DNA of 56,053 bases from a virus (IMGVR_UViG_3300047388_000165:1-56053), one strand, 5' to 3'. Numbered from the stretch's first letter, positions 1,315-48,245 are shown. The notes: generated from the letters alone by a model not told the origin. Made by a program: numbers and translations.

Positions 1315-1491
1315 ATGAGTCAAGACACAATGAAAGCACTGCTCGTGCCTGTCGATGAGCAAGTCGAATCGAAACGGTTGAAAGAGCAAGCCCGGTGGGA
1401 GAACTGGGGTCGCACGTTGGGCACTGCCACCCGGGACCAAATCCTGCGGAATGCCAAGCCGGACTGGCAATGGGACGATTACAGCATATGA
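1315..1491 (+). CDS. Small hypothetical early protein
   Basis: AAAGGA SD before ATG at 1315; ATGA overlap with the next gene. Confidence 0.6.
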   Translation: MSQDTMKALLVPVDEQVESKRLKEQARWENWGRTLGTATRDQILRNAKPDWQWDDYSI

Positions 1492-1652
1492 GCATCGAAG
1501 CTGCCATCGCCAAGCGACTGATGGACATTCAGTCGGTTCACGGTTTCCGATATGCCTGCCGGGTGTGCCACCATTGGCATGCTTGGTATCGCACCGAGGA
1601 GGCTAAAGCCGTGGTGCGCGCCGCTGCCCGGCTGGCCTTCGGTCGAAGCTAA
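1488..1652 (+). CDS. Small hypothetical protein with CxxC
   Basis: MSIEAAIAKRL...CRVC; translationally coupled. Confidence 0.55.
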   Translation: MSIEAAIAKRLMDIQSVHGFRYACRVCHHWHAWYRTEEAKAVVRAAARLAFGRS

Positions 1653-1674
1653 CCATCATAGGGCGCATATAGTG
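1650..1674 (+). promoter_or_regulatory. Putative early promoter, repeat copy 2
   Basis: TAACCATCATAGGGCGCATATAGTG; contains -10-like TATAGT. Confidence 0.55.
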
Positions 1675-1776
1675 AGGGCTGCTCCGAGAGATGCCCACGG
1701 TCGGGGATTGATTTCCCTTCGAGCGTGAGAATCACTCACCCGGTGCAATCAGCATCGGTTTACAAAGGACAGCAAT

Positions 1777-2268
1777 ATGCAGACTCAAAATGACGGACAA
1801 CTCGGACTAATCGGATTCGTTGACGACGCCATCAACCGCGTCTTCGCCCCGAAAGAGATCAAAGGCAAGAACGGCGCCACAGTGGGCACCTCAGTCACCA
1901 TGCGCTCTCGCAAGGACATTGCCGAAGCTCTCCAACTCAAGGGCAAAGACAACAAGGATGCGCTCGACGCGAAGATTCTCGAACAGTCCGACTCCGCCTT
2001 CCGGCAGGTCAAAGGCCAAATCGCCGGCCTCGGCAACGATTGGACGCTCGCCAAGGTGTCGCAACGCACCCTCGGCAATGGTGTCCGCCAAATCAGCGTG
2101 GTCGTAAAGGAAATCAAACGCCAAGTTGGCCCCAAGGACGAGGAAATCGCCAAGGCCCTCGGCTGGACCGTCGAACAGGTGCAGGAAGCCCGCAATCGCC
2201 AGGAAGCGGCGCTGGCCAAGAACACGGTCGACATGGAGCCCAGCGAAACTGCCCCGGTCAACGCCTGA
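1777..2268 (+). CDS. Hypothetical early protein with C-terminal HTH-like segment
   Basis: 163 aa; EEIAKALGWTVEQV; AAAGGACAG at 1764. Confidence 0.8.
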   Translation: MQTQNDGQLGLIGFVDDAINRVFAPKEIKGKNGATVGTSVTMRSRKDIAEALQLKGKDNKDALDAKILEQSDSAFRQVKGQIAGLGNDWTLAKVSQRTLGNGVRQISVVVKEIKRQVGPKDEEIAKALGWTVEQVQEARNRQEAALAKNTVDMEPSETAPVNA

Positions 2269-2320
2269 ACGATGCCACACTCAACACCGGGTCGAGGACA
2301 CTAAGACCCGGTATTTACCT

Positions 2321-2554
2321 ATGCCTATTCGACAAGCCACGGTTAAATCACTCGCTGAAGGCGCTATCAACGCCCTCACCAACATCAATGGCGGCAGCAC
2401 TCACCTGAATGTCCGAGATTGGATGTTCTGGAGTGGAAAACTCACACCAGACGAGCTGGCTGAGCTGTACCAGCAGATACTCGACGGAATGGTCGAGGTG
2501 TACGCGAAGAACGGTGTGCCTGTTGAACAGTTCAAGGAGATGCTACCAAAATGA
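2321..2554 (+). CDS. Hypothetical protein
   Basis: ATG at 2321 after hairpin 2286-2312; coupled to the next gene. Confidence 0.6.
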   Translation: MPIRQATVKSLAEGAINALTNINGGSTHLNVRDWMFWSGKLTPDELAELYQQILDGMVEVYAKNGVPVEQFKEMLPK

Positions 2555-2748
2555 ACACCAAATGGCTGTTAATACAGGCGTTTCTCAATCGCATACCCTG
2601 CCGCGTCGTCACTCCTGGCGGCGAAGTACTTCAGTTCAAGGTCATCAACCGAATTGAGCACGAGGACGGCAGCACACGCTCCTTTAATGTCGAGGGCTTC
2701 GGCATGACGGGACAACCACTCAAAGCCCACCTGAGAACGGATGACTGA
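2551..2748 (+). CDS. Hypothetical protein
   Basis: 65 aa, overlapping start/stop chain. Confidence 0.6.
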   Translation: MNTKWLLIQAFLNRIPCRVVTPGGEVLQFKVINRIEHEDGSTRSFNVEGFGMTGQPLKAHLRTDD

Positions 2749-2929
2749 TATGACTCAAATTGAAATTGACAACGAATTTGACCTCGATCGACTGAGGCGG
2801 AAGGAAAATGAAGCCTGGGAATTGGCCGGCTGCGCTCGCGTCGATCGTGATAAAACCGACGAAGCGCGGTGGACAGCTATTGCCCGCGCTATCCGTCAAC
2901 GAATGCTCGAACTGAGAGGTAGCCAATGA
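2741..2929 (+). CDS. Hypothetical protein
   Basis: 62 aa, coupled. Confidence 0.6.
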   Translation: MTDMTQIEIDNEFDLDRLRRKENEAWELAGCARVDRDKTDEARWTAIARAIRQRMLELRGSQ

Positions 2930-3336
2930 AATATTTCTGGTACGGAATGGCTATATGCGTCGGATGTGGCTGCATCACATCAGTTATTAAGGGCTGGCTG
3001 CGTCACCGTCGAAACGTGGAGACTTGGAATCAAATCATCGACGGCATGGTCGACAACCTGCACCTGCTCCATGAGGAGACAGGGAAACTGGCCGAAGACT
3101 GGAATCGCTGGACGCTCGATGAGCGCAAGAAAGCTCTCTTTGATGTGATTCTGGGAGAGCGATTGAAGGACGACTCAAACCACGAGCGCAGCAAAGCAAT
3201 GGCTGATTGGACGCTCGAATTGCATACTCAAGACAATCCGACCCTTGCATGGAATCAGCACATCTACGCGATAATGATTCACCGCCGAATGGAGCTGGCC
3301 AAACGAGCAGTTCGAAAGGCGAAGCAAGCCAAGTAG
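2926..3336 (+). CDS. Hypothetical protein with N-terminal membrane anchor
   Basis: GAGG SD; hydrophobic N-terminus. Confidence 0.65.
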   Translation: MKYFWYGMAICVGCGCITSVIKGWLRHRRNVETWNQIIDGMVDNLHLLHEETGKLAEDWNRWTLDERKKALFDVILGERLKDDSNHERSKAMADWTLELHTQDNPTLAWNQHIYAIMIHRRMELAKRAVRKAKQAK

Positions 3337-3410
3337 GCAAAGCACGGTGCGAGACGATCTCACTCGCTCCCTCTTTGCCAGCATGGTGCTGGTGATACGA
3401 AAGGACAGAA

Positions 3411-3674
3411 ATGCAGAACATTGACGCCAAATTCCTGACAGCCTCGCAATTCCGACGGCTGGCAGATATCAAAGACCAAATCGCCGATCTCGAAAACGAG
3501 TTTAACACGATTGCCACCACTGGAACTCCAGTGAGTATGCCGGAGCCCGCACAGTTCAGGAATAAAACATACGTGGCCGGCACAGGCACTCACCGGAAGA
3601 TTACTCGCTGGACACCTGAACGCCGCGCGAAGTTTCGTCGCACAATGCGGCTGAAGCGCGAAGGGAAGCTCTGA
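3411..3674 (+). CDS. Small basic putative DNA-binding protein
   Basis: Coiled coil plus Arg-rich WTPERRAKFRRTMR tail; AAAGGACAG at 3400. Confidence 0.7.
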   Translation: MQNIDAKFLTASQFRRLADIKDQIADLENEFNTIATTGTPVSMPEPAQFRNKTYVAGTGTHRKITRWTPERRAKFRRTMRLKREGKL

Positions 3675-3742
3675 CCGTTCCACTCCCGGCTCCTTGCGAG
3701 CCCGGACTGAAGCGATCATGCTTCATAACCAAAGGACAGAAC

Positions 3743-3934
3743 ATGAGTGCAAAAAATATACCGATTGAGTTCCCTCAAACCTCCACAGCCACCGAGCAGG
3801 GCGATGGCGTGCTGATTCACTGGACGTGTCAACCGCGGTTGACAGGCAAACGTCTCGTGGTGCTCTGCGCCACCGTCGAATCCACGCGCACCGTGAAGCG
3901 CATGACGAAATATCTGCGCGAGGAGGGGCGATGA
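3743..3934 (+). CDS. Hypothetical protein
   Basis: AAAGGACAG at 3731; contains the palindrome (CQPRLT). Confidence 0.65.
   Translation: MSAKNIPIEFPQTSTATEQGDGVLIHWTCQPRLTGKRLVVLCATVESTRTVKRMTKYLREEGR
3827..3844. repeat. Dispersed palindrome TGTCAACCGCGGTTGACA
   Basis: Perfect 18-bp copy. Confidence 0.95.
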
Positions 3935-4401
3935 AAGTGACGCTCAAACGACTCTCTGCGTGCCCGTGCGGGTTCCACGCCCTGAATGACGACATCAAGC
4001 TGGGGACTGAGTATGAGGTCCAAGAGAACAGGCCGAAGCTGACCTTCGACTTCATCTGTGGTAATTGCGGCCACAAACAGAAGCTGATGGGGATATCAGT
4101 GACGCGCGATGGCGGACCTCCTGGATATCTTCCTGAGCTGCTGTTCAGTGACGAGGGCCAGAAGATGATGAAACTCACCGACATCTTGAGCGAAACCCAG
4201 CTCGACGAAGTGGAGCGCATCTTGAACGAGAGTGAGGGTGATCGGATGAAGGCCACGTTGGTGCTCCGGCGATACCTCTCGATGTTCAAAACTGAGCTGG
4301 AAGCCAAAGGCGTGGTCAGCGATTATCTTGCCTACGTCATCGCCTACAAGCAGTGGACTGGTGGCGACAACGGCGACCGCGTGGTCGCATTCAGCGCATG
4401 A
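3931..4401 (+). CDS. Hypothetical protein with CxC/CxxC
   Basis: AGGAGG SD before ATG at 3931; possible second start within. Confidence 0.6.
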   Translation: MKVTLKRLSACPCGFHALNDDIKLGTEYEVQENRPKLTFDFICGNCGHKQKLMGISVTRDGGPPGYLPELLFSDEGQKMMKLTDILSETQLDEVERILNESEGDRMKATLVLRRYLSMFKTELEAKGVVSDYLAYVIAYKQWTGGDNGDRVVAFSA

Positions 4402-4666
4402 GGCCGTACGTGGATGGCCGGCGCAGTCGAATCCTGATGCGTAGGCCTCGCCAAAAACAAAAGCGTTATCAACGTCGCAAGGGCTACTGCTGGCCGGATT
4501 GGGGCAGCAAGCCTGAGTCTCGACATTGGATGGAAAACACTTAAATTCAGCACTCCGCTGTTTCATACTTGCAACAGCGGACTCCTGGAGTTAAAAGGAC
4601 AGGGCGTGAGTGAAGCACGCAATGGGGGATACCCCCTTCACTGTTAGCTAACAAAGAAAGAACAGT

Positions 4667-4957
4667 ATGAACGCAAATCAAGTTCAAGCCTTCGTGGACT
4701 CGGAAGTCCAGAAGCTCGCCGATCGCCGCATCAAGCCGCTCATCGCGGCCATCAACGGCGAACTGGAGACTCAGCGCCAGAACAATGCTGAGAAGGCTCG
4801 TCTCGACGCGCTCAACGCGGAAGGCGACAAGCGCATTGCCGCGTTGCAGGTTGATCTCGGCAAGGCCAACACGGAGGTCAACGACCTCGCGGTGAAGCTG
4901 GCAGAAGCCACGGCTGGCGCTGCCAATACCGGCTCGACGACTCCTAGCGCAAGCTAA
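4667..4957 (+). CDS. Coiled-coil protein upstream of the ubiquitin-like cassette
   Basis: 96 aa heptad pattern; AAAGAACAG at 4657. Confidence 0.75.
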   Translation: MNANQVQAFVDSEVQKLADRRIKPLIAAINGELETQRQNNAEKARLDALNAEGDKRIAALQVDLGKANTEVNDLAVKLAEATAGAANTGSTTPSAS

Positions 4958-5000
4958 GCGTCGAGATAACCAACCAGAACAATAACCAAAAGGACACAAA

Positions 5001-5237
5001 ATGTTCCGATGCAAAGTTATGTATGGTCCCGACGAGTCTGAGTTCACGAGCGATACCCCGATCAAGATTGGGGATATCCGCCGTGCCCAGGAACTGCGCG
5101 ACGAACTCGGTTACGGTGATAACGTCAATCTGATGATTGGCGGAATTGCCATGCCCGACGACGCGATGGTTCCGCAGAACTCGGTCGTGGTGATCGAAAC
5201 CGCTGCGAACCGCAAGGCCGAACTGGCCTGCGCGTAA
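5001..5237 (+). CDS. Ubiquitin-like (beta-grasp) protein
   Basis: 78 aa; pattern KVMYG...IGDIR...LGYGDNVNLMIGG..MPDD.....VVVIETAANRKA; context with E1/E2/JAB. Confidence 0.7.
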   Translation: MFRCKVMYGPDESEFTSDTPIKIGDIRRAQELRDELGYGDNVNLMIGGIAMPDDAMVPQNSVVVIETAANRKAELACA

Positions 5238-5249
5238 GCAGTAAACCGT

Positions 5250-5302
5250 GTGCCCCAGTGGTCCGAGTAACGAGCTCGGCTGCTGGGGCACTTTTCTTGT
5301 TT
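5250..5302 (+). terminator. Intrinsic terminator/attenuator after the Ubl gene
   Basis: GTGCCCCAG...CTGGGGCAC stem followed by TTTTCTTGTTT. Confidence 0.7.
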
Positions 5303-5318
5303 AATCCAAAGGAAAGAT

Positions 5319-6065
5319 ATGGAAACAAAATTACAGTTTATTATTGCGGAGAACGGCACGTTCTACCGCGAGGACATCACCCGGAGAGAGATCGTGGTGG
5401 GGGATGCGCTGCAACGCGCGCTCAACGCCAACGTCGTCTCGAAGGTTCACAACTTACTTGAACTGCCCAGCCATGGAGCGGTTCACTTGGTTTATACCCA
5501 GCAGGACGCCACCTGGAACTTCTCGGTTCCGATGGAAACCATCAACTTTCGCACGACGTTCAAACCGATCGTCAACGAGGCGAAATACAAAGACCAGCTC
5601 TACCCGACGTTTGCCCCCAAGGAGACGACGGATACGATCATGGAGATCGAGTGGTCCCGGGAAAAAGCCATGGTCAGTCAGGACGCATCCATGCGGATTC
5701 GCTTCCTGGTGCAGGTCAAAGAACACAACGGCGGCTATTACGCGCATGACCACTACCTCTTCGCCTTCGATGGCCGGGGAGTCGCGTATCGCATGCCAAT
5801 CGCCAATCTCTTCGACACGTGTCAGGTGTGCATGGGCACCTACGATTCGAAGTCCACTACCGCCATCGGATCAGTCATTCTGGCGCTGCGGCAATTCCGC
5901 TCCGCTTCGTGGAACGCAGACTTGTTTCGCAACAAGGATACGGTCTGGAAATTCATCCGGTTCAAAGCACTGGAAAAAGGGTTCGAAACGCAATCGATCG
6001 TGGGAGCGTGGACTACGCTCTGCGAAAAGGTTGCCCCACCGCAACTCAAATTCTGTGACGTATGA
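5319..6065 (+). CDS. Prokaryotic E2-like conjugating enzyme (PRTRC protein B / E2 family D-like)
   Basis: YRMPIANLFDTCQVCMG (PN...xC catalytic region) and FRSASWNADL. Confidence 0.7.
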   Translation: METKLQFIIAENGTFYREDITRREIVVGDALQRALNANVVSKVHNLLELPSHGAVHLVYTQQDATWNFSVPMETINFRTTFKPIVNEAKYKDQLYPTFAPKETTDTIMEIEWSREKAMVSQDASMRIRFLVQVKEHNGGYYAHDHYLFAFDGRGVAYRMPIANLFDTCQVCMGTYDSKSTTAIGSVILALRQFRSASWNADLFRNKDTVWKFIRFKALEKGFETQSIVGAWTTLCEKVAPPQLKFCDV

Positions 6066-6418
6066 GCGAGACGTATCCTGAAGCGTTGCAGGTGTTATTG
6101 AACTGCGAAAACGCCACCAACCTGAAAGACCATATCGATCGCACCATCGTGAGCGTTGGCAAAGCGATGGAGATTGACACTCTCGAATATCACTCCGGGA
6201 TGTATGCCCGCAAGGACTTCACCGTCGGCGCATTAGTTGCGTCTGATCCTGAAGTTCGCCGACTGGTCAGTCGAGCGGGAGTGAATATTCGGGACTTCGA
6301 CACGAACATCTCCATAGCGTCACGGGCGATTCAGGAGGAGATGAACAAGCGCAGCCCGATTGGTGAGAAGATCGCCAAAGTCTTGAGGGATACCTGCGCC
6401 AATAGGAGCGTCCGATGA
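6062..6418 (+). CDS. Hypothetical protein within the ubiquitin-like cassette
   Basis: 118 aa, ATGA-coupled on both sides. Confidence 0.7.
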   Translation: MSETYPEALQVLLNCENATNLKDHIDRTIVSVGKAMEIDTLEYHSGMYARKDFTVGALVASDPEVRRLVSRAGVNIRDFDTNISIASRAIQEEMNKRSPIGEKIAKVLRDTCANRSVR

Positions 6419-7395
6419 AATCCACCATCTATATTATCGGGTGCGGTGGTGTGGGTAGTTGGCTGGCGCCGTCGCTGGCCTTGCTCACCTCCCCAAAGCA
6501 AATCGTGCTCATCGACGCGGACATGCTGGAAGAGAAGAATCTCGACCGGCAGTTGTTCAAACCGGAAGACATTGGTCGCTCGAAGGCGGAAGCGCTGGCT
6601 GAGCGATACGGGTGTAATCACCTGCACGCTTGGTTCTCGGAAGGACTGATGGAGTTCCATGAGGACGACTGGCTGATCGTGTGTGTCGATAACCACATGG
6701 CACGCAAGGCGGCACTCTCAGTCTGCGACCGGTATGGCACATTGGCCATCTTCGCGGCCAACGAGACGCACTCCGCTGAGGCATACTTCTATCAACGCGA
6801 GTGGATGAATCAACCACTCGATCCCCGGGTTTACTTCCCTAATATTCTCACCGACAAGTCCAATGACCCGCGCTCGCGGACCATCGGCTGCACGGGAGAG
6901 GCGCAGGTGGAAAACCCCCAGCTAGTAACGAGTAACGCACTGGCGGCATCTTTGGCCGGCCACCTTTTCGCGCTGTGGCATCTCCACGCGCCCACGGTCA
7001 AATCAAAGACAATTCCATTCCTACCATACCGTCTCGTGGCGAACCGAACTCGCCTGGAGACTCACTTAATCAAAGACAAACTGAAAGGACAGACAGATGA
7101 GCGATCCCAACCTACACCCGGAGGAGCAGTCGTGGCCGACGCTGCCAATACTTCCGGACCCACCGAGTCCACCGGAGCCAGTGGACCAGAGCCCACAGCA
7201 GCCAATATTGCCAATAATCCAAATGGAGACAGTGCAGGACGACACACTGGACGGGCTGACTCGAATAACGGACACGTCGGCAGCTCAAGCAGTGCCGAGT
7301 CAACCGCGGTTGACACAGGACGAGACGCCGTCGCCGTCCGAGACACCGCCCCCATCCACGTCGGAGCCAGAAGTGGAGGCGGATATGGCGGCTAA
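6415..7395 (+). CDS. ThiF/E1-family adenylyltransferase with a low-complexity tail ending in GG
   Basis: IIGCGGVGSW, DAD..EEKNLDRQ, CVDN, candidate catalytic Cys in IGCTG. Confidence 0.9.
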   Translation: MKSTIYIIGCGGVGSWLAPSLALLTSPKQIVLIDADMLEEKNLDRQLFKPEDIGRSKAEALAERYGCNHLHAWFSEGLMEFHEDDWLIVCVDNHMARKAALSVCDRYGTLAIFAANETHSAEAYFYQREWMNQPLDPRVYFPNILTDKSNDPRSRTIGCTGEAQVENPQLVTSNALAASLAGHLFALWHLHAPTVKSKTIPFLPYRLVANRTRLETHLIKDKLKGQTDERSQPTPGGAVVADAANTSGPTESTGASGPEPTAANIANNPNGDSAGRHTGRADSNNGHVGSSSSAESTAVDTGRDAVAVRDTAPIHVGARSGGGYGG

Positions 7396-8038
7396 AAAGA
7401 AGGTGGCCATCGCAATGGATGGCGCCATCAAAGTCGTGGAGGTGCCTGAGCCGCTCAAACGCAAGTGCGAGCTGAAGGACGTGTTGCCACAGGGCGTGAT
7501 TCAGTTGCTGGCGTCCGCGCCACACAACGAAACCGTCCGCAACGTGCTGCTCGCGCATTTGAAAGTGCCAGTGCCTGAGGAGCTGAAGAGCTACAAGGAC
7601 ATTCAGGACTGGATCGAGTTCAACATCGAGCCTCCCAAGGCGCTAGCGGCGAAAGGCGGAGTTCCTATACCGGCTTCACGTGCGGAGGTGGTCGCGGTCG
7701 CTATCGCCTTGGATGATAGGGAGCATGGAACGTGTTCTTACTCCCGCGACATGTGGGGGCGGGGAACTGTCAACGTGACGCAACATGACATCGTCACGGC
7801 AGCGGCGGAATCGGATGACTCGGATGAGTTCTGGGGGAGAGTGCGAGATGTAATCTACGAAGAAGGCCCAACCGATCACATCGAGATAGAACCGGTTCCG
7901 AACAGCGCGTCACTCAGTGATTGTGACGTGCATGACAGCGACGGGCTGACTGTGGAGATACAGACGGCGGGCTACCAATCGGTCAAGGACTTCCTTGCCC
8001 GGGTCAATCCCGAGGCTTACGAACGACTCTTTGAGTAA
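7097..8038 (+). CDS. Hypothetical acidic protein of the cassette (alternative start 7385)
   Basis: AAAGGACAG at 7084 before ATG 7097; GGAGG at 7375 before ATG 7385; Pro-rich N-terminus overlaps the E1 gene. Confidence 0.7.
   Translation: MSDPNLHPEEQSWPTLPILPDPPSPPEPVDQSPQQPILPIIQMETVQDDTLDGLTRITDTSAAQAVPSQPRLTQDETPSPSETPPPSTSEPEVEADMAAKKKVAIAMDGAIKVVEVPEPLKRKCELKDVLPQGVIQLLASAPHNETVRNVLLAHLKVPVPEELKSYKDIQDWIEFNIEPPKALAAKGGVPIPASRAEVVAVAIALDDREHGTCSYSRDMWGRGTVNVTQHDIVTAAAESDDSDEFWGRVRDVIYEEGPTDHIEIEPVPNSASLSDCDVHDSDGLTVEIQTAGYQSVKDFLARVNPEAYERLFE
7298..7315. repeat. Dispersed palindrome (exact 16-bp core)
   Basis: AGTCAACCGCGGTTGACA. Confidence 0.95.
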
Positions 8039-8064
8039 ATTAACCAGCAACCAAAGGACAGAAA

Positions 8065-9291
8065 ATGAAAATGAAAGTGAACGGGAATATCGTCGAGGAC
8101 GATGTTTCCATAGAGGGGCTGCTTGAGTGCAAGCTGTCCCATCATATCAAAGAAACCAAGGGCACGGTGATTTACACCGGGCCAAAGATTCCACCGGAAG
8201 TGTGGAATGAAGTGCTCTCGTTCTTCAAGTGGTGCTACACCACCTACAAGAGTGAGTGCCAGGTGAGGCTGTTCGTCAGTCCCACCCAGAACACGTGGCG
8301 AGCGTGGGCGTTCCCACAGGAAGCCAAGACGGGCATGACCGCTCGTGAGATCGACAACGAGGACGCGCGGACTCAACGGGCCGAGCTGAACATGAATCCA
8401 CCGGATTGGATTTACTTCGGCACGGTTCATCATCACTGTGGCGCTGGAGCTTTCCAGTCGGGCACGGATGAGGAGAACGAGAAGAATCAGGACGGGCTGC
8501 ATATCACCGTTGGCAAGATGGATGAGAAGAAGCATGACCTGCACGCGCGGTTCTACCGCAAGGGGCTCAAGTTCACGCCGGACTTGAGCTGGTTCTTCGA
8601 TGTGGAGCCGGCACTGGAACAGGTCAGGACGTGGATGGCTTCATCGCCAGTCACACTCGACCCGAAGATCAATCCCACATTGTTCCTTGGCCACAAGGAC
8701 AAAGACGACCTCGCCAAAAGTCTGATGTGCGAGCCGTCGGAGGTGGAGTTCCCGCAGGCATGGAAAGACAACATCATCGAGATCAGGCCGGTGACGCCGA
8801 CCTATCCCGTGACGCCTTACTTCTCGGCCAGCTCTCCAGCGGGTAGCAATGGGACGACACACGGAGTCACGCACGTTCCGTCGGTTTACAGTCCAGACCA
8901 CGATCCTGTGTGGCAGCGAACGCGAAGGGCATGGAGTGAGATTCTGTTTCACTGCGTTGTGCACGAGATTGCCCCGGAGGATATCGAATCCGCCATCGGC
9001 GACCTTGCGCTCAAGGACTTCGCCCCCAACGTCGTCGTCATGGCCTGTCGTCACCACAAGGTCGACCCGGACGATCTGGAACGGGAGATGCCAACGAACC
9101 TTGCTCAAGCAATAGTGGAGGAGGCGATGTCGCAGGCGCAGGAGCGGCATGAGAGAACTGCTCCCACCCCAAAACAAAACACCAGCACGCCAAGAAGTCA
9201 GGCAAAAAGCGAGGGAAAAAAGGCCGATGGAGAGGCCCCCGCTTCTGGAACCGTTGATGGGGACGACTGGTCCCACCTCTCAGTAACTTAA
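8065..9291 (+). CDS. JAB/MPN (JAMM) metalloisopeptidase, PRTRC protein A-like
   Basis: SEC, GTVHHHC, AFQSGTD (E...HxH...S..D), GLHITVG; AAAGGACAG at 8053. Confidence 0.85.
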   Translation: MKMKVNGNIVEDDVSIEGLLECKLSHHIKETKGTVIYTGPKIPPEVWNEVLSFFKWCYTTYKSECQVRLFVSPTQNTWRAWAFPQEAKTGMTAREIDNEDARTQRAELNMNPPDWIYFGTVHHHCGAGAFQSGTDEENEKNQDGLHITVGKMDEKKHDLHARFYRKGLKFTPDLSWFFDVEPALEQVRTWMASSPVTLDPKINPTLFLGHKDKDDLAKSLMCEPSEVEFPQAWKDNIIEIRPVTPTYPVTPYFSASSPAGSNGTTHGVTHVPSVYSPDHDPVWQRTRRAWSEILFHCVVHEIAPEDIESAIGDLALKDFAPNVVVMACRHHKVDPDDLEREMPTNLAQAIVEEAMSQAQERHERTAPTPKQNTSTPRSQAKSEGKKADGEAPASGTVDGDDWSHLSVT

Positions 9292-9385: not shown

Positions 9386-9700
9386 ATGAACATCGAAGTA
9401 ATCCACGGCGGAGGACTCCCTGAGCTGGGAGTTTTTCTTGGTAGCGCCATCGACAGCATGCCGCCAACAGTCGCGCAGGCGATGCTCGGCGGGATATTCG
9501 CCAACATCGTCGGCAACATTTCCGACGAAAACTGGGAAGCCCTCAAGCAGGCGGCGCAGCTACCGTGTGAGTGTGGCGACCCCGACTGCAAGGTTTCCAT
9601 CACAGCGGTAATCGAAGCGGGCGATAAAGCCCGCAAGCAGTTCAAGAAATGCCAGGGCGAGCCGCCCAGCAATTCTGAGGAGAAAGGTTTCTCGGTATGA
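9386..9700 (+). CDS. Hypothetical protein
   Basis: 104 aa with CECGDPDC. Confidence 0.7.
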   Translation: MNIEVIHGGGLPELGVFLGSAIDSMPPTVAQAMLGGIFANIVGNISDENWEALKQAAQLPCECGDPDCKVSITAVIEAGDKARKQFKKCQGEPPSNSEEKGFSV

Positions 9701-9882
9701 AGCGTAAAACCAGCAAGCGTATTGCTGAAATCTACAACGAGGTCGAAGCAGGGTTTGATGAGAAGGCGACCGAGTTTCTGCTGGAAGTCACCGCTGAGCG
9801 CGTCCGGCTCGAGCGGCTAATTACTGATTGCGACCATGGACACGTCGCAGATGCCCTGATTCAAGAAGGAGTTTACAAATGA
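9697..9882 (+). CDS. Hypothetical protein
   Basis: 61 aa, coupled. Confidence 0.6.
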   Translation: MKRKTSKRIAEIYNEVEAGFDEKATEFLLEVTAERVRLERLITDCDHGHVADALIQEGVYK

Positions 9883-11081
9883 ACAACAACGATCAAATCC
9901 CAGGGGCCGAAGTGCCCGAAGCAGAAGTCATCAACGAAACCACCACAGTCGAGCGACGCGCGGACACACCTCCACCAGTTAAACGCGAAAGCGTGACACC
10001 CGAGCAGGCCAAAGTGGATGCCGTGGCCGAGTTGACCATGACTGCCTACGCCAAAGCCAGTGAGTTGGTGTTGACACCCGACGAACAGCTCGCGCTACAA
10101 AAAGACTTCCCGGACGAGGCGTTCCGACCGGGAGCAGCTGGCAAGGAGAACCTACTCTACATCGAGCACGCCTTCCTGCGTGGCCGGCTCAACGAAGTGC
10201 TTGGACTCGGCCAGTGGTCCATCATCCCACGAAAGCGATGGGCTGAGGACTTCATACTCCCAGCCACCCGCGACCGAGCTGAGACACCGGCCAGCCGGGT
10301 CTACGTCGAGGCGATGCTCGTCATCCGCGGTTGTTTCGTGGCGGAAGCCATCGGGGACATGGTGTATTACAAGAACAACCAGTCCCAGAACTACGGCGAT
10401 GCGGTCGAAGGTGCCAAGACGGCAGCCCTTCGTCGCTGCACCAAAGAGCTGGGTATCGGACTCCAAGCGTGGAAGAAGGACTGGTGCGAGGGATGGTGGC
10501 AGCGAAACCGAGGCGGCAGACCCGCTCAGAATGCCCCAGGACGCTCTGGGGGGTCCCAGAGTCCACCCCCAGCCCGTCCGGCAGCGCCTGCCCAGCAAAG
10601 CGCTCCAAGACCTGCCGCCAGAACGGCTGATGTGGTGCCTCCCACAGACGCAACTGAGGAGCAGAAAACCCGGTTCATCACCTCTCTGTCCAACATCAGG
10701 ACAGACGCATTGAGGTTCTTCGTTTCGAAGGGTCACCTGACCGACCTTCAGCAGCTCGAAGCCCTGCCGTTGAAACACGTGCCAGCGACCAAGAAGCAGT
10801 ACGACGACGTGATGGCGCAGATCGAGGCGTTCTCTACTCAGCCAGGGCCGGGCGCAACCGAGTTGTGGCGAGCGTATCCAATGCCGTGGGGGAAGAACAA
10901 GGACACACCGCTGGGCCAGCTCGAGAAAAACTACCTCTATGGACTCGTGATGAACTACGAGGTCGAGCGCGAGTACAATGGTGCCCCCAAGAAGGACGAG
11001 ACGATTGCCAAGGACGAGGAGTTCCGGCGCATGCTCGACGACGCTGGTCGGCACTACGATTGGATCAAGGAAAAGCAGTAA
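9879..11081 (+). CDS. Rad52/Mgm101 (Sak)-like single-strand annealing protein
   Basis: LYIEHAFLRGRLNEVLGLGQW, GDAVEGAKTAALRRCTKELGIGLQAW. Confidence 0.85.
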   Translation: MNNNDQIPGAEVPEAEVINETTTVERRADTPPPVKRESVTPEQAKVDAVAELTMTAYAKASELVLTPDEQLALQKDFPDEAFRPGAAGKENLLYIEHAFLRGRLNEVLGLGQWSIIPRKRWAEDFILPATRDRAETPASRVYVEAMLVIRGCFVAEAIGDMVYYKNNQSQNYGDAVEGAKTAALRRCTKELGIGLQAWKKDWCEGWWQRNRGGRPAQNAPGRSGGSQSPPPARPAAPAQQSAPRPAARTADVVPPTDATEEQKTRFITSLSNIRTDALRFFVSKGHLTDLQQLEALPLKHVPATKKQYDDVMAQIEAFSTQPGPGATELWRAYPMPWGKNKDTPLGQLEKNYLYGLVMNYEVEREYNGAPKKDETIAKDEEFRRMLDDAGRHYDWIKEKQ

Positions 11082-17986: not shown

Positions 17987-20900
17987 CTACTTCGACGGCG
18001 CAGGTGACTGCTTCGTCAACTCATCGATCAGCAACGTTTGAAAATTACTGAACGTCTGCTGCCGTTCCACCCGTGCCCGGGAGTACAGGTCCAACTCCTT
18101 GTCGGTCAAATCCGACAGGAAGTACTTCTCAGCGACCTTGCTCCCGGTGAACGGGCGGGCATTCCAGAGCTGCATGGCTTTGTAAATCTGGTTGTCCGTC
18201 CGGGTCTGCCGCAACTTCTCCAGTGCCTGCTGAAATCCCTTCTTGTCTTCTGACATCGCCGCGCGGCGCAGGTCGTTATATCCCAGTTCGTCGGTCTGAA
18301 TCTGTTGCCAACCCGTGCTCTTGTTGAGCCCGTTGGTCTTCACAAACTCGTCTGCCTTCTTGAAAATCTGGTTGTTCGCGGTCGGCGCGGGCTCCGTCTT
18401 CACGCCCAGCGACGCCATCGCCTGACGCTGCACGGTTCCTGGTGCCGGCGGCTGGCCAATACCCATCGCTGCCAATCCCGCCTGTCCCACCTTGCCCAAC
18501 GAAATCGGAACCGGAACCATTGCCTTCCCCATTTCCTTCGCCATGCCGCCGGTGCTGGTGATCTTGCGGTGGTCGGGCGTCTCTCCGGTGGCAAAGATCA
18601 TCGCTGCCCGACCGTAGGGACCCAGCTTGTTCTCACCGATCTGGTGGACCGCGTCGTAAACGGTGGGCTTGTTCCCACTCAGTCGAATCACATCGTGCGT
18701 CACCTCGTTGAAGAGCGACAGCGGGCTCATGAAGAATCCTCCACTCTTGCCGGTCACGTCGGGAATCCAGGCGTCCCACTTGTGTCCCTCTTCCTCGTTC
18801 TGCCATGTGGGCTTGCGTCGCGTGATGAGATTGATCGCCTGAGTCACCACGAACATGGCGGCGAGTCCGCGGGCAATGCCACGGCCAGCGGTGCCCAGCA
18901 GCGGCACGTCGCGTCGTCCGGCAAGATACGAGAGCCCGGTCAAACGGCCCGGCAGCGCTGACTCCTTCTTGATGAGCCCTTCCACCCACTGCGGCGCCAG
19001 CCCGAACATGCGAAAGATATCCTGAAAGGTCTGGTTCTTAATCCAGCCCTGACGGCCAATGCTGCCCATGTAGTTGTTGGTGTCGCGGGCGACATCGTCC
19101 ACCAGCCTCCGATAATCCACCTTTGGGTTCTCGCGGTTCATCCGCTCAAACTCCTTCACGGCAGTTTCCAGCATCAGCCCACGGGTGAACTTGTCGAAGA
19201 GCCACTTGTTGTACTTTCCAATGGGACCGCTCTCCACTTTGTAGATAGCGTCAGCGATTCGGCCAGCGTTCAGGCCGCGCTTTAGGAACATATCCGCGAT
19301 CTGGCGACGGGTGATCTGCGTCTTGCCCGCTGGCAGGTTCACGTCGATTAGTGTGTTGGCCCACTCCGCATCTTCCGGACGGACCAGTCCCTTGGCGACC
19401 GCGCCAGGAATGTCCTCCGGACGATACTCGAGGATGCTCAGGCCACCTTTGTAGCCGCCTTTGCCGATGCCGTTGATGGACCAGTCGTATGCTTTGAGCC
19501 GTCCAAGGTGGAAGGTGTCGAGGAACAGGATGGTGTGCTTCAGCTTCTGGCTGAACTGCATCGCGCGGCGCGTGGCGGGAACGTCACGGATGATGCTGCT
19601 GCCCACCAGGGCTTTGATGATGTCCACCGATCCCTTGTGAACGGCCATGTATTTGTTGCCGAAGTCCACCAGATCATACTCGGGCGATGGGCCGGTGTAG
19701 CTGCCATCCGGACGGCGCACGGGCTCAACCACCATCGGCTTGTCACTGTGCGGGTCCTTCAAAGTCTTCAGACTCTTCTCCCAGAGGCGGGTTTCAATCT
19801 GTCGCATGCCTTGACGCACACGGTGAGCCACCAGCGCCGCACCATCCATGTTGAATGGCAGGTAGTTCCCGGCAGCGATGGCCTCGTAGTAGTTGCTGAA
19901 CGTGGCCGGCTTGCGGAAGTTGCGTCCCAGGATGCGCGGTCCTTCCATGAAATTGATCCGGTCACCGTCAAACCACTGCTCGTCGTAACGACCGGGAAGG
20001 TAGTTCTCAGCCCGCTTCACTCGCATGCCCATGTCGCGTTCGGTGCGGTGTTGGGCCTCCATCTCCACGACCATCTTCGCCGCAGTGTCTTGCAGCTCGG
20101 GCTCGTTCCAGTGCTCCTCGGCATACTTCAGCTGCTCGCGCATGTCGCCCACAGCCTTGAGTCGGGCGCGGGCGGCGCGGCGGTCGAGCATACCCTGCAT
20201 GCCACCACCCTTGGACTCGATGATGTTCTTGGACTTCTGTTCTGCCGTGTCGAGTTGCCGGCCAAATCGCTCCAGCTGATCGAAAGCCTTCTTGTTGTAT
20301 TTGATGGTGCCGGTGTGCCAGTCGATCTCACCGTCATCCACCATTTGCAGGACAGTTTCACGCTTCAGCTTGGCAAGCATCTGACCGCCACGGGCTTTGT
20401 CGATGGGATCGGCTGAAGAGAACAGTCCCTCGATGTTCCGGTAGATCGGGTCCTGCTTCATCTTCTCCAGCACGACCGGCTTCATCTCATCCGGCACCGG
20501 ATAATCGATGGTGTAAGCCCCAGCCTGAACCACTGTGGGCGCGGCCTTCAGAACTTCCTTGTTGCCATTGGGCATCTTCTTGTCGGCAGTCACGAACCGG
20601 ATGGCTTTGTCCGCCTTATCGCCAGCGACCGAGTATTGGGTGTCGACCGCATCCCGGGTGGCAGACAGCTGCTGCTCGGAGGCTTTGCGTTTCACGTAGG
20701 CCGTGAGCGCGCTCACTGCATCCGCCGTGTCCTCTTTCAATTCCTCAACTCGGCGCAGGGCTGCCGGGCCGCCATGCTTCTTGAACAGGTCCAGCTGGCC
20801 TTTGTTGCCCTCACCTTTGGCCACGACCTTTTTCTCCGCCTTCAGTGACTCACCAGCGGGCTTAGACGGCGATTCCGATTCTACGTCACGCTCTGGGAAA

Positions 20901-23900
20901 AGCTCACGGTTGATGTAGTCGGAAACCTCTTTGTCCGCAGCTTCCTGTCTTGCGGCCTCGTCTTCCGCCAAAGCATCAGACCCTTCGTTTGGCTCCCTTT
21001 CCACTCTGGCACCTTCGATTGGCTTATTACTTCCGGATACACGATAACGCTCCTTTGGTGTGGGGCTATCCACGATGCTTTGCATCAACTGCTTCGACCG
21101 ACTCTCAGTGATGATGTTGTGCTCTTTCTCGATTTCCGCTTCCAGTTTGGCGCGGTCTTCGTTTGACAGCATCTCCACCGGCTGCTTGGCGATGGCGGCG
21201 GTGGGTTCGGGAGCTATTCCCGGCTTGGCTCCAGCGACTTCGGTAGGCGGACGGTCCCGGATGGTGCTGAGGTCGCGGGCGCCACTGCGCTTCTCGCGCT
21301 CGGCTTGAGCGAGGAGGATGCGTCGAGATGCTGCATCCGCTTCAGCAGTGCTGGGACGGCTTTGTGCCATGGTCCTTTGTACGAAGTCGCTGCGGGTGTC
21401 GCTTTGGTTGTAGTTTTCATAGAGTTGATCGAGCACCTGGCCCAGCGCTTCACCTTCGCTCATTCCCCGGTTCTGTGCCCGGACAATCCGCATGAGCTTC
21501 CGCAGTCCGCTCACCATCGATCGGCTGGCGGTGGCGGCAGTGCGTTCAATCCGGCGTGCCCATTGCAGAGCATCGGAGGGCGGCGTGTCACCAAAGAAAT
21601 TGTGAAAGTCCTTCAGCTCTGCCTCAGTGGGCCGGGGCAGGTCATACTTCTCACCCGGGAACGAGAACGGCGTGGCGAGACGCATACCCTTCTGGGGCAC
21701 ATCCGCCTCACGAACTCCTGGCGCATCCAGTGAGGCTACATCACCACCTTGCGGAATGTCGCTATAACCGGTGCCATGTTCACGGGCGAGGTCAGCCGCC
21801 TCTTTGTGGAACATCTCCTGAAAGTCAGCCATCGAGTTGAACTTCTGGTGGAAGTTCTGTTTTGGCTCACGCAGCAGGATCGAATAAAACGGCTCGTAAT
21901 TCGGAGTGATCTCTTCGATTGGTCGGCTGGGACGTTCCTTGCCGGCCAGAGCAGGGTCCACCATGCGAACGGTACCATCACCGGGGTAGGTCGAAACCAA
22001 ATGGACGGTGCCATCCCGCTTGTCGAAGAGCGCGGTCAGCCGGCGCGTCATGGAAACCGGCAGGGAACTGCCGCCCACGCGAGCCTCTGACGTGAGAATC
22101 TTCTTCAGTTCAGCCGGGTTCTTCGCTTCGCTGGGCGTGATCGCGCGGTAGGGTAGTTGAGCATCTTCGCTCTGAGGCAAATCCTGAAACCAAATATCCT
22201 GCGCGAACACCTTCTGTTCTGGTGGCGTCTCTTTTGCCCCCAGTTGTGCGGCGCTTGCGGCCTGCACATCTTCACCACCGGGCACGCCCTTCTTAGTAAC
22301 CGCCGCGAAAAATTCTTCCTGCTCTCCAGCTTTGCCTTTCTTCCGCAGAGCTGCCGGACCTTCCGGTTCACCAGACCGTTCGACAGCAGCATACGGGCTG
22401 AAACCTTTGATGATCTTGTCCCCCTTTGGGAGCATGCCGTGTGTCCACTTTCCGTTCTTGTCGACGGTCCCAATCGAATCAATCTTGGACCCACCGTACT
22501 TCTCAATCATCGCCTTGCCACCAGCGCTCACATCGTACTGCTTGCCAGCATAGGCCGCGCGGTAGATGGAGCCATCAGGTCGGCGGACGAGAACAACGCG
22601 CTCACCAGGGGCGGTAGGAGGAAGCGGGGATTCCAAATCATCGATGTTGTGGGTGGGCACACCTCCACTCTCCAAGGGCTTCGCACCCTTGGTAAGGTCA
22701 GGAGGCAATTTGAATGCGTTCGGCGTGCCGCTGCCTTCCACTGATCGCACCGCATGATCGCCCAGCCGGTCGGCGGGAATGTCAACGAACTCCATCTTCG
22801 GCCCCATGCGGGAAGCGTAGGTCTTGTCACTGCTCCAGTAGGCACCCCCCTCACCACCGTCATGGCCACGATAAAGCCGGACCATGCCTTCGGCGGGCTC
22901 ATCTTCCTTCCGCACCGAGAACGGCTGGTTGCCAGCACCGGCTCCAACAGTGGCACCGATCGCATCCTTCGCGGCTTCGATATTGTCGCGCACTTTGTCG
23001 AGGATGGACTTCTGGTGGGCACTCAACTCCGAGTCCTTCAATCCCCGGATTTTGCTGACGATGTTGGAAAGATGATCCAGTGCCTGAGCGGTCCAGCGTT
23101 CATGCAGAGCCATGCCGACGAAATCGTCGCGCGTCATCCCCATCGCTCGCTCCATGCGATTGCGGATTGCCTCAAATCCCAACTGTGCAGGTGTGAAATT
23201 GTCCGGGTTGTGACCCTTCAGATACTGGCGCTTCAGAATGCTCTGCTCGAACGGAGACATCGAGTTCCAGAATGGCTCGGCATCCTCTGGGTCGGTCTTG
23301 AGGTGGATGTCCTCGTGATCGAACTTCGACTTCACCGCCGCGGCCTTTTCCTTTGGCGACATTCCCTTCAGGTCGTTGTCCACGAACTTGGCGAACTCCT
23401 GGGGGTCCACGATGATCTGCCCGTTCTCGTGGTCGGCCATCATAATTCGGCCATCCGGCAGTTTCCCAAACACCGACTTACCTTCCTCGCCCATGTGGGG
23501 CTCGAGCAATTTGGAGTGCTCAGGACTCAGTGAAACTTGAGGCTGTGGGGCATTGGCCGCCACCGCTTGTTGCTGCAACAGATCATTCTGACCGATCGCC
23601 GCACGCACTTCTGGCGGTGGAGCGCCTTCCGGACCCGGCACTTTGGCGCGTGGAGCTGATTCTTTGAATGCGGAATGAGCGAGCAGGGAGCCCATCCCAA
23701 TGTTGGCAGTAAGCGACGTGTAGGCTTTGGCGATCTCATCCGGAGTCTTGGCCTCGCTGATGGCCTTCAGGGAGTCCGGGATCGCCATGCCCATCTGGGC
23801 ACCGTAATACGCCTGCACGGGTTTGAACTCAGCAAATGGCAGTGTGGCCACTCCACCGGGCGTGGTAAATCCTTCGATGGTTTGGGCCAATCCCTCGCCA

Positions 23901-46857: not shown

Positions 46858-47580
46858 TCAAAGAGTGTAACCCGCCTCCGCAGCATCGCGGAAAAACATT
46901 TGCGCGGTCGCTATGGATAGTTGCTCAAGGTTCTGCTCCTGCATGTTGATGGCCTTTTTCAATATCTCCTCCGGAACGGTGATAATATCGCAACCGGTTT
47001 CGTTGGCCTCGTAGATGTTCAACGGCTCGCGCACGCTGGCCCAAAGCAGCTCGGTGTTGGGACGGTCGCCGAACTTCATCTTATCGACTGCATTGAACAT
47101 GAACTCCCGAGCGTGCAATCCGGTATCAGCCACCCTTCCGGCGAATATCGATATCACGGACGGCACATTGCGATGGATCGCCTTCAAGGACTCGGAGACC
47201 TGCCACAATCCCAGGACAGCAGTGACATTGACACAGACTCCGCATTCGCCCAGCTCCTTGATTAAATCGTAAGTAGGATTCCCGTTGGTGAACACCACTG
47301 GAATTTTAACGAACACGTTGTTGCCCCATTTGCTGATCTTCAATGCCTGCCTCAGCATCTCCGACGGCTCATCCGAGAACACCTCGAAGGATATTGGCTT
47401 GCGATCGACCACCTCCAGAACCTCCTTGGCAAAGCGCTCGTAATCGGTCACGCCCGCACGCCGCATCAACGTGGGATTGGTGGTGAACCCTTTTATCAAA
47501 GGGTCTTCGTTGAGCCTGATGATCGACTTCAAATCAGCCCCGTCAGCGTAAATCTTTACTTTGAGTTCGGATAATTTCAT
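46858..47580 (-). CDS. tal: Transaldolase
   Basis: YADGA, GFTTNPTL, ISFEV, VFVKIP (Schiff-base Lys), NVT, FAGR, LWAS.RE. Confidence 0.9.
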   Translation of the reverse strand: MKLSELKVKIYADGADLKSIIRLNEDPLIKGFTTNPTLMRRAGVTDYERFAKEVLEVVDRKPISFEVFSDEPSEMLRQALKISKWGNNVFVKIPVVFTNGNPTYDLIKELGECGVCVNVTAVLGLWQVSESLKAIHRNVPSVISIFAGRVADTGLHAREFMFNAVDKMKFGDRPNTELLWASVREPLNIYEANETGCDIITVPEEILKKAINMQEQNLEQLSIATAQMFFRDAAEAGYTL

Positions 47581-48245
47581 AGCGTGATGATGATAGGGTC
47601 GTTCTCGTGGGCTCGGCACTCAGCCAATATCTGCTCACGAGTGCGGCGCGTGTGGGTCCCGTGGCCACGAGCGATGTTGCGCTCACTCAATCTCGGCCCT
47701 CGGTCGCGCGTCTCCCGGTCAATCCAGAAGCACGGGTCGGAGTTGGCCCAGTGAGCGCCCTTCCATGCCGTTCCTGATGACCTCGGGTCAGTGGCCCTAT
47801 AATCGTGATTACCCGCGCCCATCTCCACGCCGGTCGGATCGAAGATGCAGGGCTTGACGTGGTCAGGGATGCCGTGCAATCGCTGGGGAACTGGGGGTAT
47901 GGTGCGATCGATGTTCTTATCGGAGTGATGGCGCCACATCCGGGTCATGGCGGAGTAGATCATCCGGTTTCCCAACATCCGTTCTTTTTCCAAAACCGAT
48001 CTCGGATTGGTTCCGTACGGATCAGGGTAGACGAACTCATCCATGTCGACCAGCACCACCCAGTCAGCCTTAGACCGGGCCAGTGCCTCGTTAATCCAGT
48101 TCATCTTCAACTCGTCATCAAACTTTCCATCCGGAAACTGCTGGGTGATGAAGGTCATGCGGTCGCACCAGGGCGAATAGTGGAGCATGAAGAGCGGAGC
48201 GAGAAACTCCTCCCGATAGAACGTGGTGATGAGTTCGATAATCAT
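47577..48245 (-). CDS. GT-A fold glycosyltransferase
   Basis: ADWVVLVDMDEF (DxD). Confidence 0.75.
   Translation of the reverse strand: MIIELITTFYREEFLAPLFMLHYSPWCDRMTFITQQFPDGKFDDELKMNWINEALARSKADWVVLVDMDEFVYPDPYGTNPRSVLEKERMLGNRMIYSAMTRMWRHHSDKNIDRTIPPVPQRLHGIPDHVKPCIFDPTGVEMGAGNHDYRATDPRSSGTAWKGAHWANSDPCFWIDRETRDRGPRLSERNIARGHGTHTRRTREQILAECRAHENDPIIITL

Follow-up and report, generated by a model that had tools for sequence, protein, structure and literature searches.

The 56,053-bp stretch of DNA analysed here (IMGVR_UViG_3300047388_000165, positions 1 to 56,053, hereafter the window) is a single complete virus record (CheckV 100%, without end repeats) taken from a collection of viral contigs, and its plus strand carries, at positions 4667-9291, a compact cassette of seven open reading frames (ORFs) that probably constitutes a working ubiquitin-like conjugation system. 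The cassette appears to be of the kind called PRTRC, for ParB-Related, ThiF-Related Cassette (NCBIfam TIGR03734-03742), which is identical to operon type 6d as described by Iyer, Burroughs and Aravind (2006, PMC1779556), diverged past the curated thresholds and found in a clade of phages of ∼56 kb. From its first gene to its last, it encodes a coiled-coil protein (cc96), a ubiquitin-like (Ubl) tag, an E2-like protein, an accessory protein termed X, a ThiF-type E1, a second accessory protein termed Y, and a JAMM/JAB metallopeptidase (JAB). The seven ORFs follow one another almost without spacing and head the recombination/replication arm of the genome.

An initial annotation of this DNA had proposed that a phage encodes here a complete Ubl-E2-X-E1-Y-JAB cassette, and this reading is supported, in that it fits every test run. 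The seven plus-strand ORFs that it named are all present at their coordinates, as are the motifs that it quoted, namely ANLFDTCQVCMG in the 248-residue protein, GCGGVG, NLDRQ, and CVDN in the 326-residue protein, and HHH...SGTD in the 408-residue protein. The phage origin is likewise borne out, because genes for an exonuclease, a helicase, a primase, a terminase, and a baseplate are all found on this complete virus record. In the paragraphs below, related loci on other contigs are referred to by number (L002 and following), with L013, L014, and L015 representing the more distant ones.

The E1 is the only protein of the cassette that reaches a family cut-off. Encoded at 6415-7395 (plus strand, 326 residues), it matches Pfam ThiF at E 4.4e-18 and 65.8 bits, against a cut-off of 28.1, and this match, together with the catalytic motifs, upholds its identification as a ThiF/E1 protein. 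Its longest NCBIfam match is to TIGR03736, PRTRC_ThiF (E 7.6e-13, residues 4-178), one of the families that score best for it, and lies far below the cut-off (48.3 bits against 144.75). The glycine motif G9xGGxG14, the stretch N42-L-D-R-Q46 with R45, D92, and C159 (in GIGCTGE) are invariant in all six orthologues compared; by reference to the structures of MoeB, ThiF, and Uba proteins, we take them to be the nucleotide-binding glycine motif, the arginine finger, the Mg-binding aspartate, and the crossover-loop cysteine, respectively. These residues belong to a core of residues 1-227 (6415-7095), beyond which residues 228-326 form a variable, low-complexity tail. The E1 measures 259-326 residues in the clade of the window and only 225-230 residues in L013-L015, where the tail is missing and Y begins at the end of the E1 (L013 and L014) or overlaps it by 17 nucleotides (L015).

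The last gene of the cassette (8065-9291, plus strand) encodes the JAMM/JAB metallopeptidase of 408 residues, which carries E64 and the complete motif H122-x-H124-x7-S132-x2-D135. The window, L002, and L006 all keep the five residues E64, H122, H124, S132, and D135, which are also visible in L013-L016. Pfam Prok-JAB matches residues 60-151 below its cut-off (E 0.0032, 17.8 bits against 25), PRTRC_A matches residues 121-167 (E 0.021), and in a small profile comparison the JAB motif region HHHCGAGAFQSGTD was aligned to HSHGTFEAFFSGTD of PRTRC_A; with a complete HxHx7SxxD motif aligned to that of PRTRC_A, the proposal of a JAMM protease stands. The protein is 50-55% identical in relatives, among which its C-terminal ∼240 residues (region ∼170-408) are conserved as well, for instance in ACRHHKVDPDDLE. 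This C-terminal part found nothing in PDB sequences, where only chance-level rows were returned, or in the ESM Atlas.

The tag, encoded at 5001-5237 (plus strand), is a protein of 78 residues whose ubiquitin-like beta-grasp nature, also anticipated by the initial annotation, is confirmed by its predicted structure. The AlphaFold2 (AF2) model has a mean predicted local distance difference test score (pLDDT) of 80.5, and Foldseek returned for it six hits in the PDB at E≤0.001, with template-modelling scores of 0.62-0.70 and a probability of 1.00. All the listed hits are ubiquitin-type proteins or domains, and they include ubiquitin, NEDD8, SUMO, FAT10, and the ubiquitin-like protein of Bacteroides fragilis (BfUbb). 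In an alignment of 26 relatives, the tag ends in VVVIETAANxKA, the last residue being A73 in the window, or more generally in (V/I)-E-T-x-A-N-x-K-A, followed by 0-8 unconserved residues, of which the window tag has five. The residue that follows the conserved lysine is alanine in all 26 sequences. The distant tags end in ...ANTKNN, in ...ANSKQS, or, in L015, in ...ANSKA plus 30 residues, so that the position after the lysine is Asn or Gln in L013 and L014. No family model matches the window tag, none of the 26 members of its family matches Pfam Prok_Ub (PF14454) at E≤10, and hhalign of the tag against two PRTRC_C sequences gave P 0.33. The PRTRC_C proteins themselves end in ...RA(A/V)G(A/R)KG plus a tail, that is, in a ...G-x-K-G pattern. 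In Type II BilA, the conserved glycine is followed by up to nine residues that are not conserved, and it is there that the JAB enzyme BilC cuts (PMC10557695). Since the conserved end and variable tail of the window family parallel this arrangement, a removable tail fits this kind of tag.

The E2-like protein, encoded at 5319-6065 (plus strand, 248 residues), is the member whose identity required the most distant comparisons. It carries P160-x2-N163-x7-C171-x-G173, with C171 as the putative catalytic cysteine, and its assignment comes from a profile comparison with Prok-E2_D and PRTRC_B. Close relatives number 27, on contigs up to 56 kb, and a profile search over 1.84 billion representatives, clustered at 50% identity, retrieved 490 clusters at E≤1e-3, of which 320 remain at E≤1e-10. 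Ten clusters that were looked up have one or two members each and are metagenomic; two bear the label "hypothetical protein", the others are unannotated, and one lies on a contig of 55,324 bp. Conservation was read in 80 diverse members, whose identity to the window protein is 22-60%. Full invariance across all 80 is limited to P160, N163, and C171; G173, W198, N199, D201, L202, and C235 come close to it, and C168, the first cysteine of a CxxC in the window protein, is not conserved. Pfam Prok-E2_D is matched by 39 of the 80, always below its cut-off (best 4.5e-5), and TIGR03737 (PRTRC_B) by ten, while no other family is matched by more than one member. When 30 members were scanned singly, four matched at E≤0.01, all on profile positions 82-141 of 171, which is the active-site stretch.

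A profile built from 38 true PRTRC_B proteins, all carrying PF14460, aligned by hhalign with the profile of the E2-like family at a probability of 84% (E 7.4e-6, 73 columns). In this alignment, P160, N163, C171, and G173 of the window protein coincide with the invariant P148, N151, C159, and G161 of PRTRC_B, with identical spacing. The asparagine eight residues upstream of the cysteine (N163 and C171) is thus kept in 80 of 80 members, at a spacing that we take to equal that of the eukaryotic His-Pro-Asn (HPN) motif and its cysteine. An Asn-x7-Cys that is invariant in these 80 members and aligned to that of PRTRC_B would be hard to account for if this protein were not catalytic. We read the 248-residue protein as a remote relative of Prok-E2_D that keeps the catalytic Asn-x7-Cys, as judged from these profiles, and not as a member of that family. 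The initial annotation, which had called it E2-like, therefore holds as regards a remote, profile-level relationship to Prok-E2_D with an invariant Asn-x7-Cys, whereas the UBC fold was not confirmed by structure searches.

The order in which relatives keep these genes counts in favour of a working cassette. For each of the seven ORFs, related proteins are encoded on other viral or metagenome contigs, with amino acid identities of 28-88%, and gene context was inspected in eight contigs, every inspected locus being on a phage-sized one. The order Ubl-E2-E1-Y-JAB is kept in seven of the seven loci that span it (the window, L002, L003, L006, L013, L014, and L015, all of them 56-58-kb viral contigs), with 47-77% identity in the E1, and the fragments L007-L010 agree with this order as far as they reach. 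A nucleotide search with the cassette against 50,697 phage records found no match, and tblastn against the phage collection likewise gave no match for the E2-like protein or for its distant family member P0102. For the distant members P0102, P0120, and P0210, nothing was found in viral or genome contigs.

A further locus, L016, carries at 1413-5669 of a 64.7-kb viral contig the genes for an 819-residue protein, a 363-residue JAB, and then a 228-residue ThiF E1 (28% identical). Residues 115-230 of the 819-residue protein match Prok-E2_D above the Pfam cut-off (27.4 bits), and the JAB, which is of the long type, matches the JAB profile of the window family at 5e-16. As far as these sequence comparisons go, L016 bridges the window cassette to the curated family. 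Its E2 protein also has a C-terminal extension of ∼590 residues without a family.

Searches of Pfam, NCBIfam, PHROG, and PADLOC gave no family above noise for the three remaining proteins of the cassette, and cc96, X, and Y showed no similarity to PRTRC_E or PRTRC_F in hhalign comparisons (P 0.05-0.86). The coiled-coil protein cc96 (96 residues, 4667-4957, plus strand) is better conserved in close relatives than any other gene of the neighbourhood, with 83-88% identity in L002, L003, and L006 and 54% in L007, above any enzyme of the cassette; it was not detected in L013 or L015. X (118 residues, 6062-6418, plus strand) evolves fast, being 28-31% identical in L002 and L007, and an ORF of 111-118 residues occupies its slot in the window, L002, L003, L007, L013, and L015. 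Its gene overlaps those of the E2-like protein and of the E1 by four nucleotides each in the window, L002, and L013, while in L015 only the X/E1 overlap is found and the E2 and X genes abut; translation of X would be coupled to that of the E2 and E1 genes on either side.

Y (313 residues, 7097-8038, plus strand) has a proline-rich N-terminus, which overlaps the E1 tail by 299 nucleotides in a different frame, and a body that is conserved from about residue 97. Its identity in relatives is 32-39%, and nothing usable was found for it in the ESM Atlas. The ribosome-binding site AAAGGACAGA precedes its ATG at 7097 and the equivalent ATG in L002, L006, L013, and L015; the same site stands before the genes starting at 1777, 3411, 5001, 8065, and 11103 and is the usual one of this phage. 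A start of Y at 7385, preceded by GGAGG and marking where conservation begins, was dropped in favour of 7097 because of the phage-typical site there and the equivalent starts in four relatives, although 7385 may serve as an alternative internal start. The C-terminus of Y reads [YF]xxLF with acidic residues in four close relatives, and AIF, GLM, or LGL in L013-L015. As a possible clamp-binding motif, this ending was rejected as evidence in view of the other endings in L013-L015 and of the missing leading glutamine of the textbook motif, and it was kept only as a lead. In the same genomes, X (28-31%) and Y (32-39%) diverge much faster than the tag (70-75%) and the E1 (63-77%). X and Y are the likeliest adaptors or first substrates of the system.

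The genes, the catalytic residues that they encode, the order in which they are kept, and their relationship to PRTRC are what the sequences show; from these, we infer the following chemical steps. The JAMM peptidase would trim the 78-residue pro-tag just past its conserved ETxANxK(A) end. The ThiF-type E1 would then adenylate the new C-terminus of the tag with ATP and probably take the tag over on C159, from which it would move to C171 of the E2-like protein, where N163 would act as the asparagine of the eukaryotic HPN motif. Finally, the tag would be transferred to a lysine of a target, and the JAMM peptidase would be able to remove it again. A complex prediction that combined the E1 (residues 1-226) and the tag, with the E2-like protein as partner, gave run scores of 0.49, 0.12, and 0.00, where the mark is 0.32, and, as it had no controls, counts neither way.

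Several observations weigh against a working conjugation cassette and should be set out together. No C-terminal Gly or Gly-Gly is present past the last strand of the tag in the 26 relatives or in the distant L013-L015; this absence does not fit the kind of tag that its removable tail suggests, the residue to be activated would be A73 or K72, and a glycine-less tag may be a poor substrate of an E1. The E2-like protein of the window, scanned alone, matches no family in Pfam, NCBIfam, PHROG, or PADLOC. The histidine H188 of PRTRC_B, invariant in the context F-T-H-P-N, falls in a gap of the E2-like family, which has W198-N199-x-D201-L202 instead; in the 6d E2-like proteins, a histidine C-terminal to the cysteine is absolutely conserved according to Table 1 of Iyer et al. 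(2006, PMC1779556). The AF2 model of the E2-like protein (pLDDT 83.6) gave no Foldseek hit in the PDB at E≤0.001, and in VIA-align its best Z was 5.3, under the noise level of 7-8, as were all the 50 rows, about eight of which are E2 or RWD-type by title. Lastly, no E3 was recognised in the cassette.

The structural rows for the E2-like model are listed here for completeness, and all of those from VIA-align lie below the noise level: Ubc9 (Z 3.7, root-mean-square deviation 5.0, 97 residues aligned), UBE2J2 (Z 3.5, root-mean-square deviation 3.9, 94 aligned), FANCL (Z 4.0 and 3.4), and kinetochore proteins of RWD type (Z 3.5-5.3). A second VIA search had as its best row a p32-like protein (Z 5.0), a BFVD search gave no named family but two phage proteins that are uncharacterised (E 5.5e-7 and 2.7e-5), and the profile of the E2-like family found nothing among PDB sequences at E≤10.

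The first alternative to be considered shares the chemistry proposed above and differs in the target only. As the initial annotation suggested, the cassette might be a weapon of counter-defence or of competition between phages, with the JAB stripping host Ubl conjugates of the CBASS Cap2 or Bil type, or with the E1 and E2 tagging a protein of host defence or of a rival phage. Bacterial E1/E2/JAB systems do act in phage defence (PMC10097602, PMC10557695), and the fast evolution of X and Y (28-39%) relative to the E1 and the tag (70-77%) is what would be expected of proteins that face a changing opponent; it points, loosely, to a role in conflict. Moreover, the N-terminus of the E1 Rossmann domain matches 32 PADLOC models of the "E1-E2" type (CBASS Cap2), the best at 8.7e-11. 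However, these matches cover only the generic nucleotide-binding residues 3-76, and none of the six other cassette proteins matches any defence model of PADLOC. In addition, a tag and writer enzymes of its own would be superfluous in a pure eraser, and no host system can be named. Overall, we hold this alternative to be unlikely.

A different target, on which we would place a small chance, is a protein of replication or recombination: the glycine-less tag, activated at Ala or Lys, would modify the annealing protein of the phage itself or a part of the host replisome, such as the sliding clamp. This idea comes from three observations, namely that the cassette always lies directly upstream of the gene for the annealing protein despite a swap of the family of that protein, that no polymerase was found among the ORFs scanned, and that Y has the [YF]xxLF end. 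Taken together, the position next to recombination genes, the lack of a detected polymerase, and the hydrophobic C-terminus of Y point loosely to DNA metabolism. The slot downstream of the JAB gene holds a Mgm101/Rad52-like protein in the window and RecT in L013 (7880-8998) and L015 (8304-9218), where the RecT gene follows one for an HNH endonuclease; since the slot is filled by unrelated families, the neighbourhood has survived an exchange of the annealing-protein family.

Also improbable, in our judgement, is that the cassette conjugates nothing to proteins at all. The tag and the E1 would then be an adenylation/sulfur-carrier pair, such as ThiS/ThiF or MoaD/MoeB, or the cassette would harbour a processing pair of the TAPI/TAPK type, and the 248-residue protein would be no catalytic E2. 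It is true that ThiF equivalogs are among the best NCBIfam matches of the E1 (4.3e-13), that structure searches do not show a UBC fold, and that phages have Ubl and JAB pairs, without E1 or E2, in tail assembly (Iyer et al. 2006, PMC1779556). Yet the ThiF equivalog matches are limited to residues 2-64 and fall far under the cut-offs (49 bits against 159), and the Asn-x7-Cys, invariant in 80 of 80 E2-like proteins and aligned to PRTRC_B, speaks for a catalytic E2. Family scans of the cassette and window ORFs detected no rhodanese domain and no thiamine or molybdopterin genes, the tag has no Gly-Gly end, and the cassette belongs to the replication arm and not to a tail module. It has also been argued by Iyer et al. 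(2006, PMC1779556) that E1s found together with JAB use the thioester route and not sulfur transfer.

Finally, a decaying remnant, in which one or more of the genes would be inactive in the window phage, is very improbable: in this clade, the E1 ORF does extend beyond its conserved core, by ∼100 codons, into the frame of the next gene, and the JAB and E2 family scores are below cut-offs, but the catalytic residues are all intact and invariant across relatives, independent contigs keep all seven reading frames open at 28-88% amino acid identity, and the order is kept in seven of seven loci.

We return to a working conjugation cassette of the PRTRC/6d kind and to its genomic setting. The plus strand from ∼1.8 to 17.9 kb encodes a Rad52/Mgm101-like annealing protein (9828-11081; Pfam Mgm101p, E 2.1e-13), an exonuclease and a helicase (PHROG matches at 1.8e-39 and 3.3e-71), and a Toprim primase, and the cassette lies directly upstream of these recombination/replication genes. 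Terminase, baseplate, and other structural genes occupy the remainder of the window, and the cassette is outside the tail module. No DNA polymerase was found among the window ORFs scanned (Pfam and PHROG family scans of 12, 18, and 37 ORFs). From its position, and from that only, we infer that the cassette is expressed early. The 265-nucleotide gap before it (4402-4666) contains a promoter-like site, TCGACA-16-TAAATT (4520-4547, plus strand), found by a consensus scan and considered a candidate only; three such sites were found against 7.2 expected in shuffles, which is fewer than chance and gives them no statistical support.

A few further observations concern individual genes of this region. 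Between the tag and E2-like genes there is a weak terminator-like hairpin (5275-5287), which could raise the expression of the tag above that of the enzymes; such sites are no commoner than in shuffles. At 1777-2268 (plus strand), upstream of the early arm, a protein of 163 residues matches region 3 of sigma-70 below the threshold (E 6.3e-5, 23.4 bits against 25.3) and is possibly, on this sequence match, a sigma-like factor of the phage. Between the JAB and annealing-protein genes, an ORF of 104 residues (9386-9700, plus strand), without a family and 50-63% identical in L002, L003, and L006, may belong to the cassette or to the recombination module. On the minus strand, an ORF of 2128 residues with no Pfam or PHROG family (17987-24373) opens the structural arm, and a transaldolase/fructose-6-phosphate aldolase gene (46858-47619; Pfam TAL_FSA, 3e-38), which stands beside glycosyltransferase-like and methyltransferase genes, is probably an auxiliary metabolic gene.

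To our knowledge, the bacterial cases of ubiquitin-like conjugation demonstrated to date are all host defence systems, namely CBASS type II and Bil. If the DNA-metabolism target were true, this would be the first bacterial virus to write a ubiquitin-like mark in order to take over DNA metabolism, and PRTRC-type cassettes would acquire a function. Their description as uncharacterised in the initial annotation agrees with our literature searches, which, based on titles and the openings of abstracts, found no functional study of PRTRC; a search on phage-encoded ubiquitin-like/ThiF or Prok-E2 sets found nothing relevant. A glycine-less tag, if it is activated, would extend what is known of E1 chemistry, and the compact set of seven genes, with its short and separately encoded proteins, is convenient for reconstitution. 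The PRTRC/6d class was predicted in 2006 (Iyer et al., PMC1779556), and the cassette of the window indicates that it reaches well beyond what curated models detect.

The cassette can now be compared with known systems, beginning with those that resemble it least. Phages Lambda and T1 also have a beta-grasp protein adjoining a JAB peptidase, TAPI (Ubl) and TAPK (JAB plus NlpC/P60) (PMC1779556); these, however, have no E1 or E2 and belong to the tail module, whereas the window cassette has both enzymes and sits with recombination/replication genes. The Bub operons (Ye et al. 2024 preprint, PMC11601596) are likewise a diverged bacterial E1/E2/Ubl set with an E2 that is hard to recognise by sequence, but they are described as using oxyester (serine) intermediates and a serine protease, whereas the window family keeps an invariant cysteine and a JAMM metalloprotease. 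With the Bil and CBASS type II Cap2/Cap3 systems, the cassette shares the logic of E1, E2, and JAB and a tag with a removable C-terminal tail (PMC10557695). These are, in contrast, host defence systems, in which the E1 is either a large protein of two domains that has its CYS domain apart (BilD) or is fused to the E2 (Cap2), while the E1 of the window is a single-domain core of 227 residues with a crossover-loop cysteine, and its cassette is phage-encoded.

The closest likeness is to PRTRC/6d. The plasmid pB1901 of Ralstonia insidiosa (L004) has the PRTRC order ParB-E-C-F-(B)-A-ThiF, and Ralstonia phage Dina (L005) has E-C-F-B-A-ThiF, annotated as such in RefSeq, so that a phage-borne cassette of the PRTRC type is not new in itself. 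Pfam identifies PRTRC B as Prok-E2_D, C as Prok_Ub, A as DUF2016 plus Prok-JAB, and F as alpha-hel2, which fits row 6d in Table 1 of PMC1779556. The differences from the window cassette are several. Its order is Ubl-E2-X-E1-Y-JAB instead of E-C-F-B-A-ThiF; ParB, PRTRC_E, and PRTRC_F/alpha-hel2 were not detected by Pfam or NCBIfam in the cassette ORFs or in 37 other ORFs of the window; and its proteins miss Prok_Ub and Prok-E2_D and match Prok-JAB and TIGR03736 only below the cut-offs. Its JAB has 408 residues, against 213-261, and no match to the N-terminal DUF2016 domain that is present in the PRTRC_A proteins of L004 and L005, the conserved histidine after the E2 cysteine is missing in its family, and its family of tags ends in alanine or another residue where PRTRC has glycine. 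On the other hand, both encode, each in a gene of its own, a small beta-grasp tag, an E2-like protein of ∼240 residues with P-x2-N-x7-C-x-G, a short rhodanese-less ThiF E1, and a JAB; both have a tag that ends in ...x-K-(G/A) plus a tail; and both are carried on mobile DNA, including phages, together with fast-evolving accessory proteins of unassigned role. Judged by sequence, then, the cassette is a strongly diverged relative of PRTRC and not a curated member of it.

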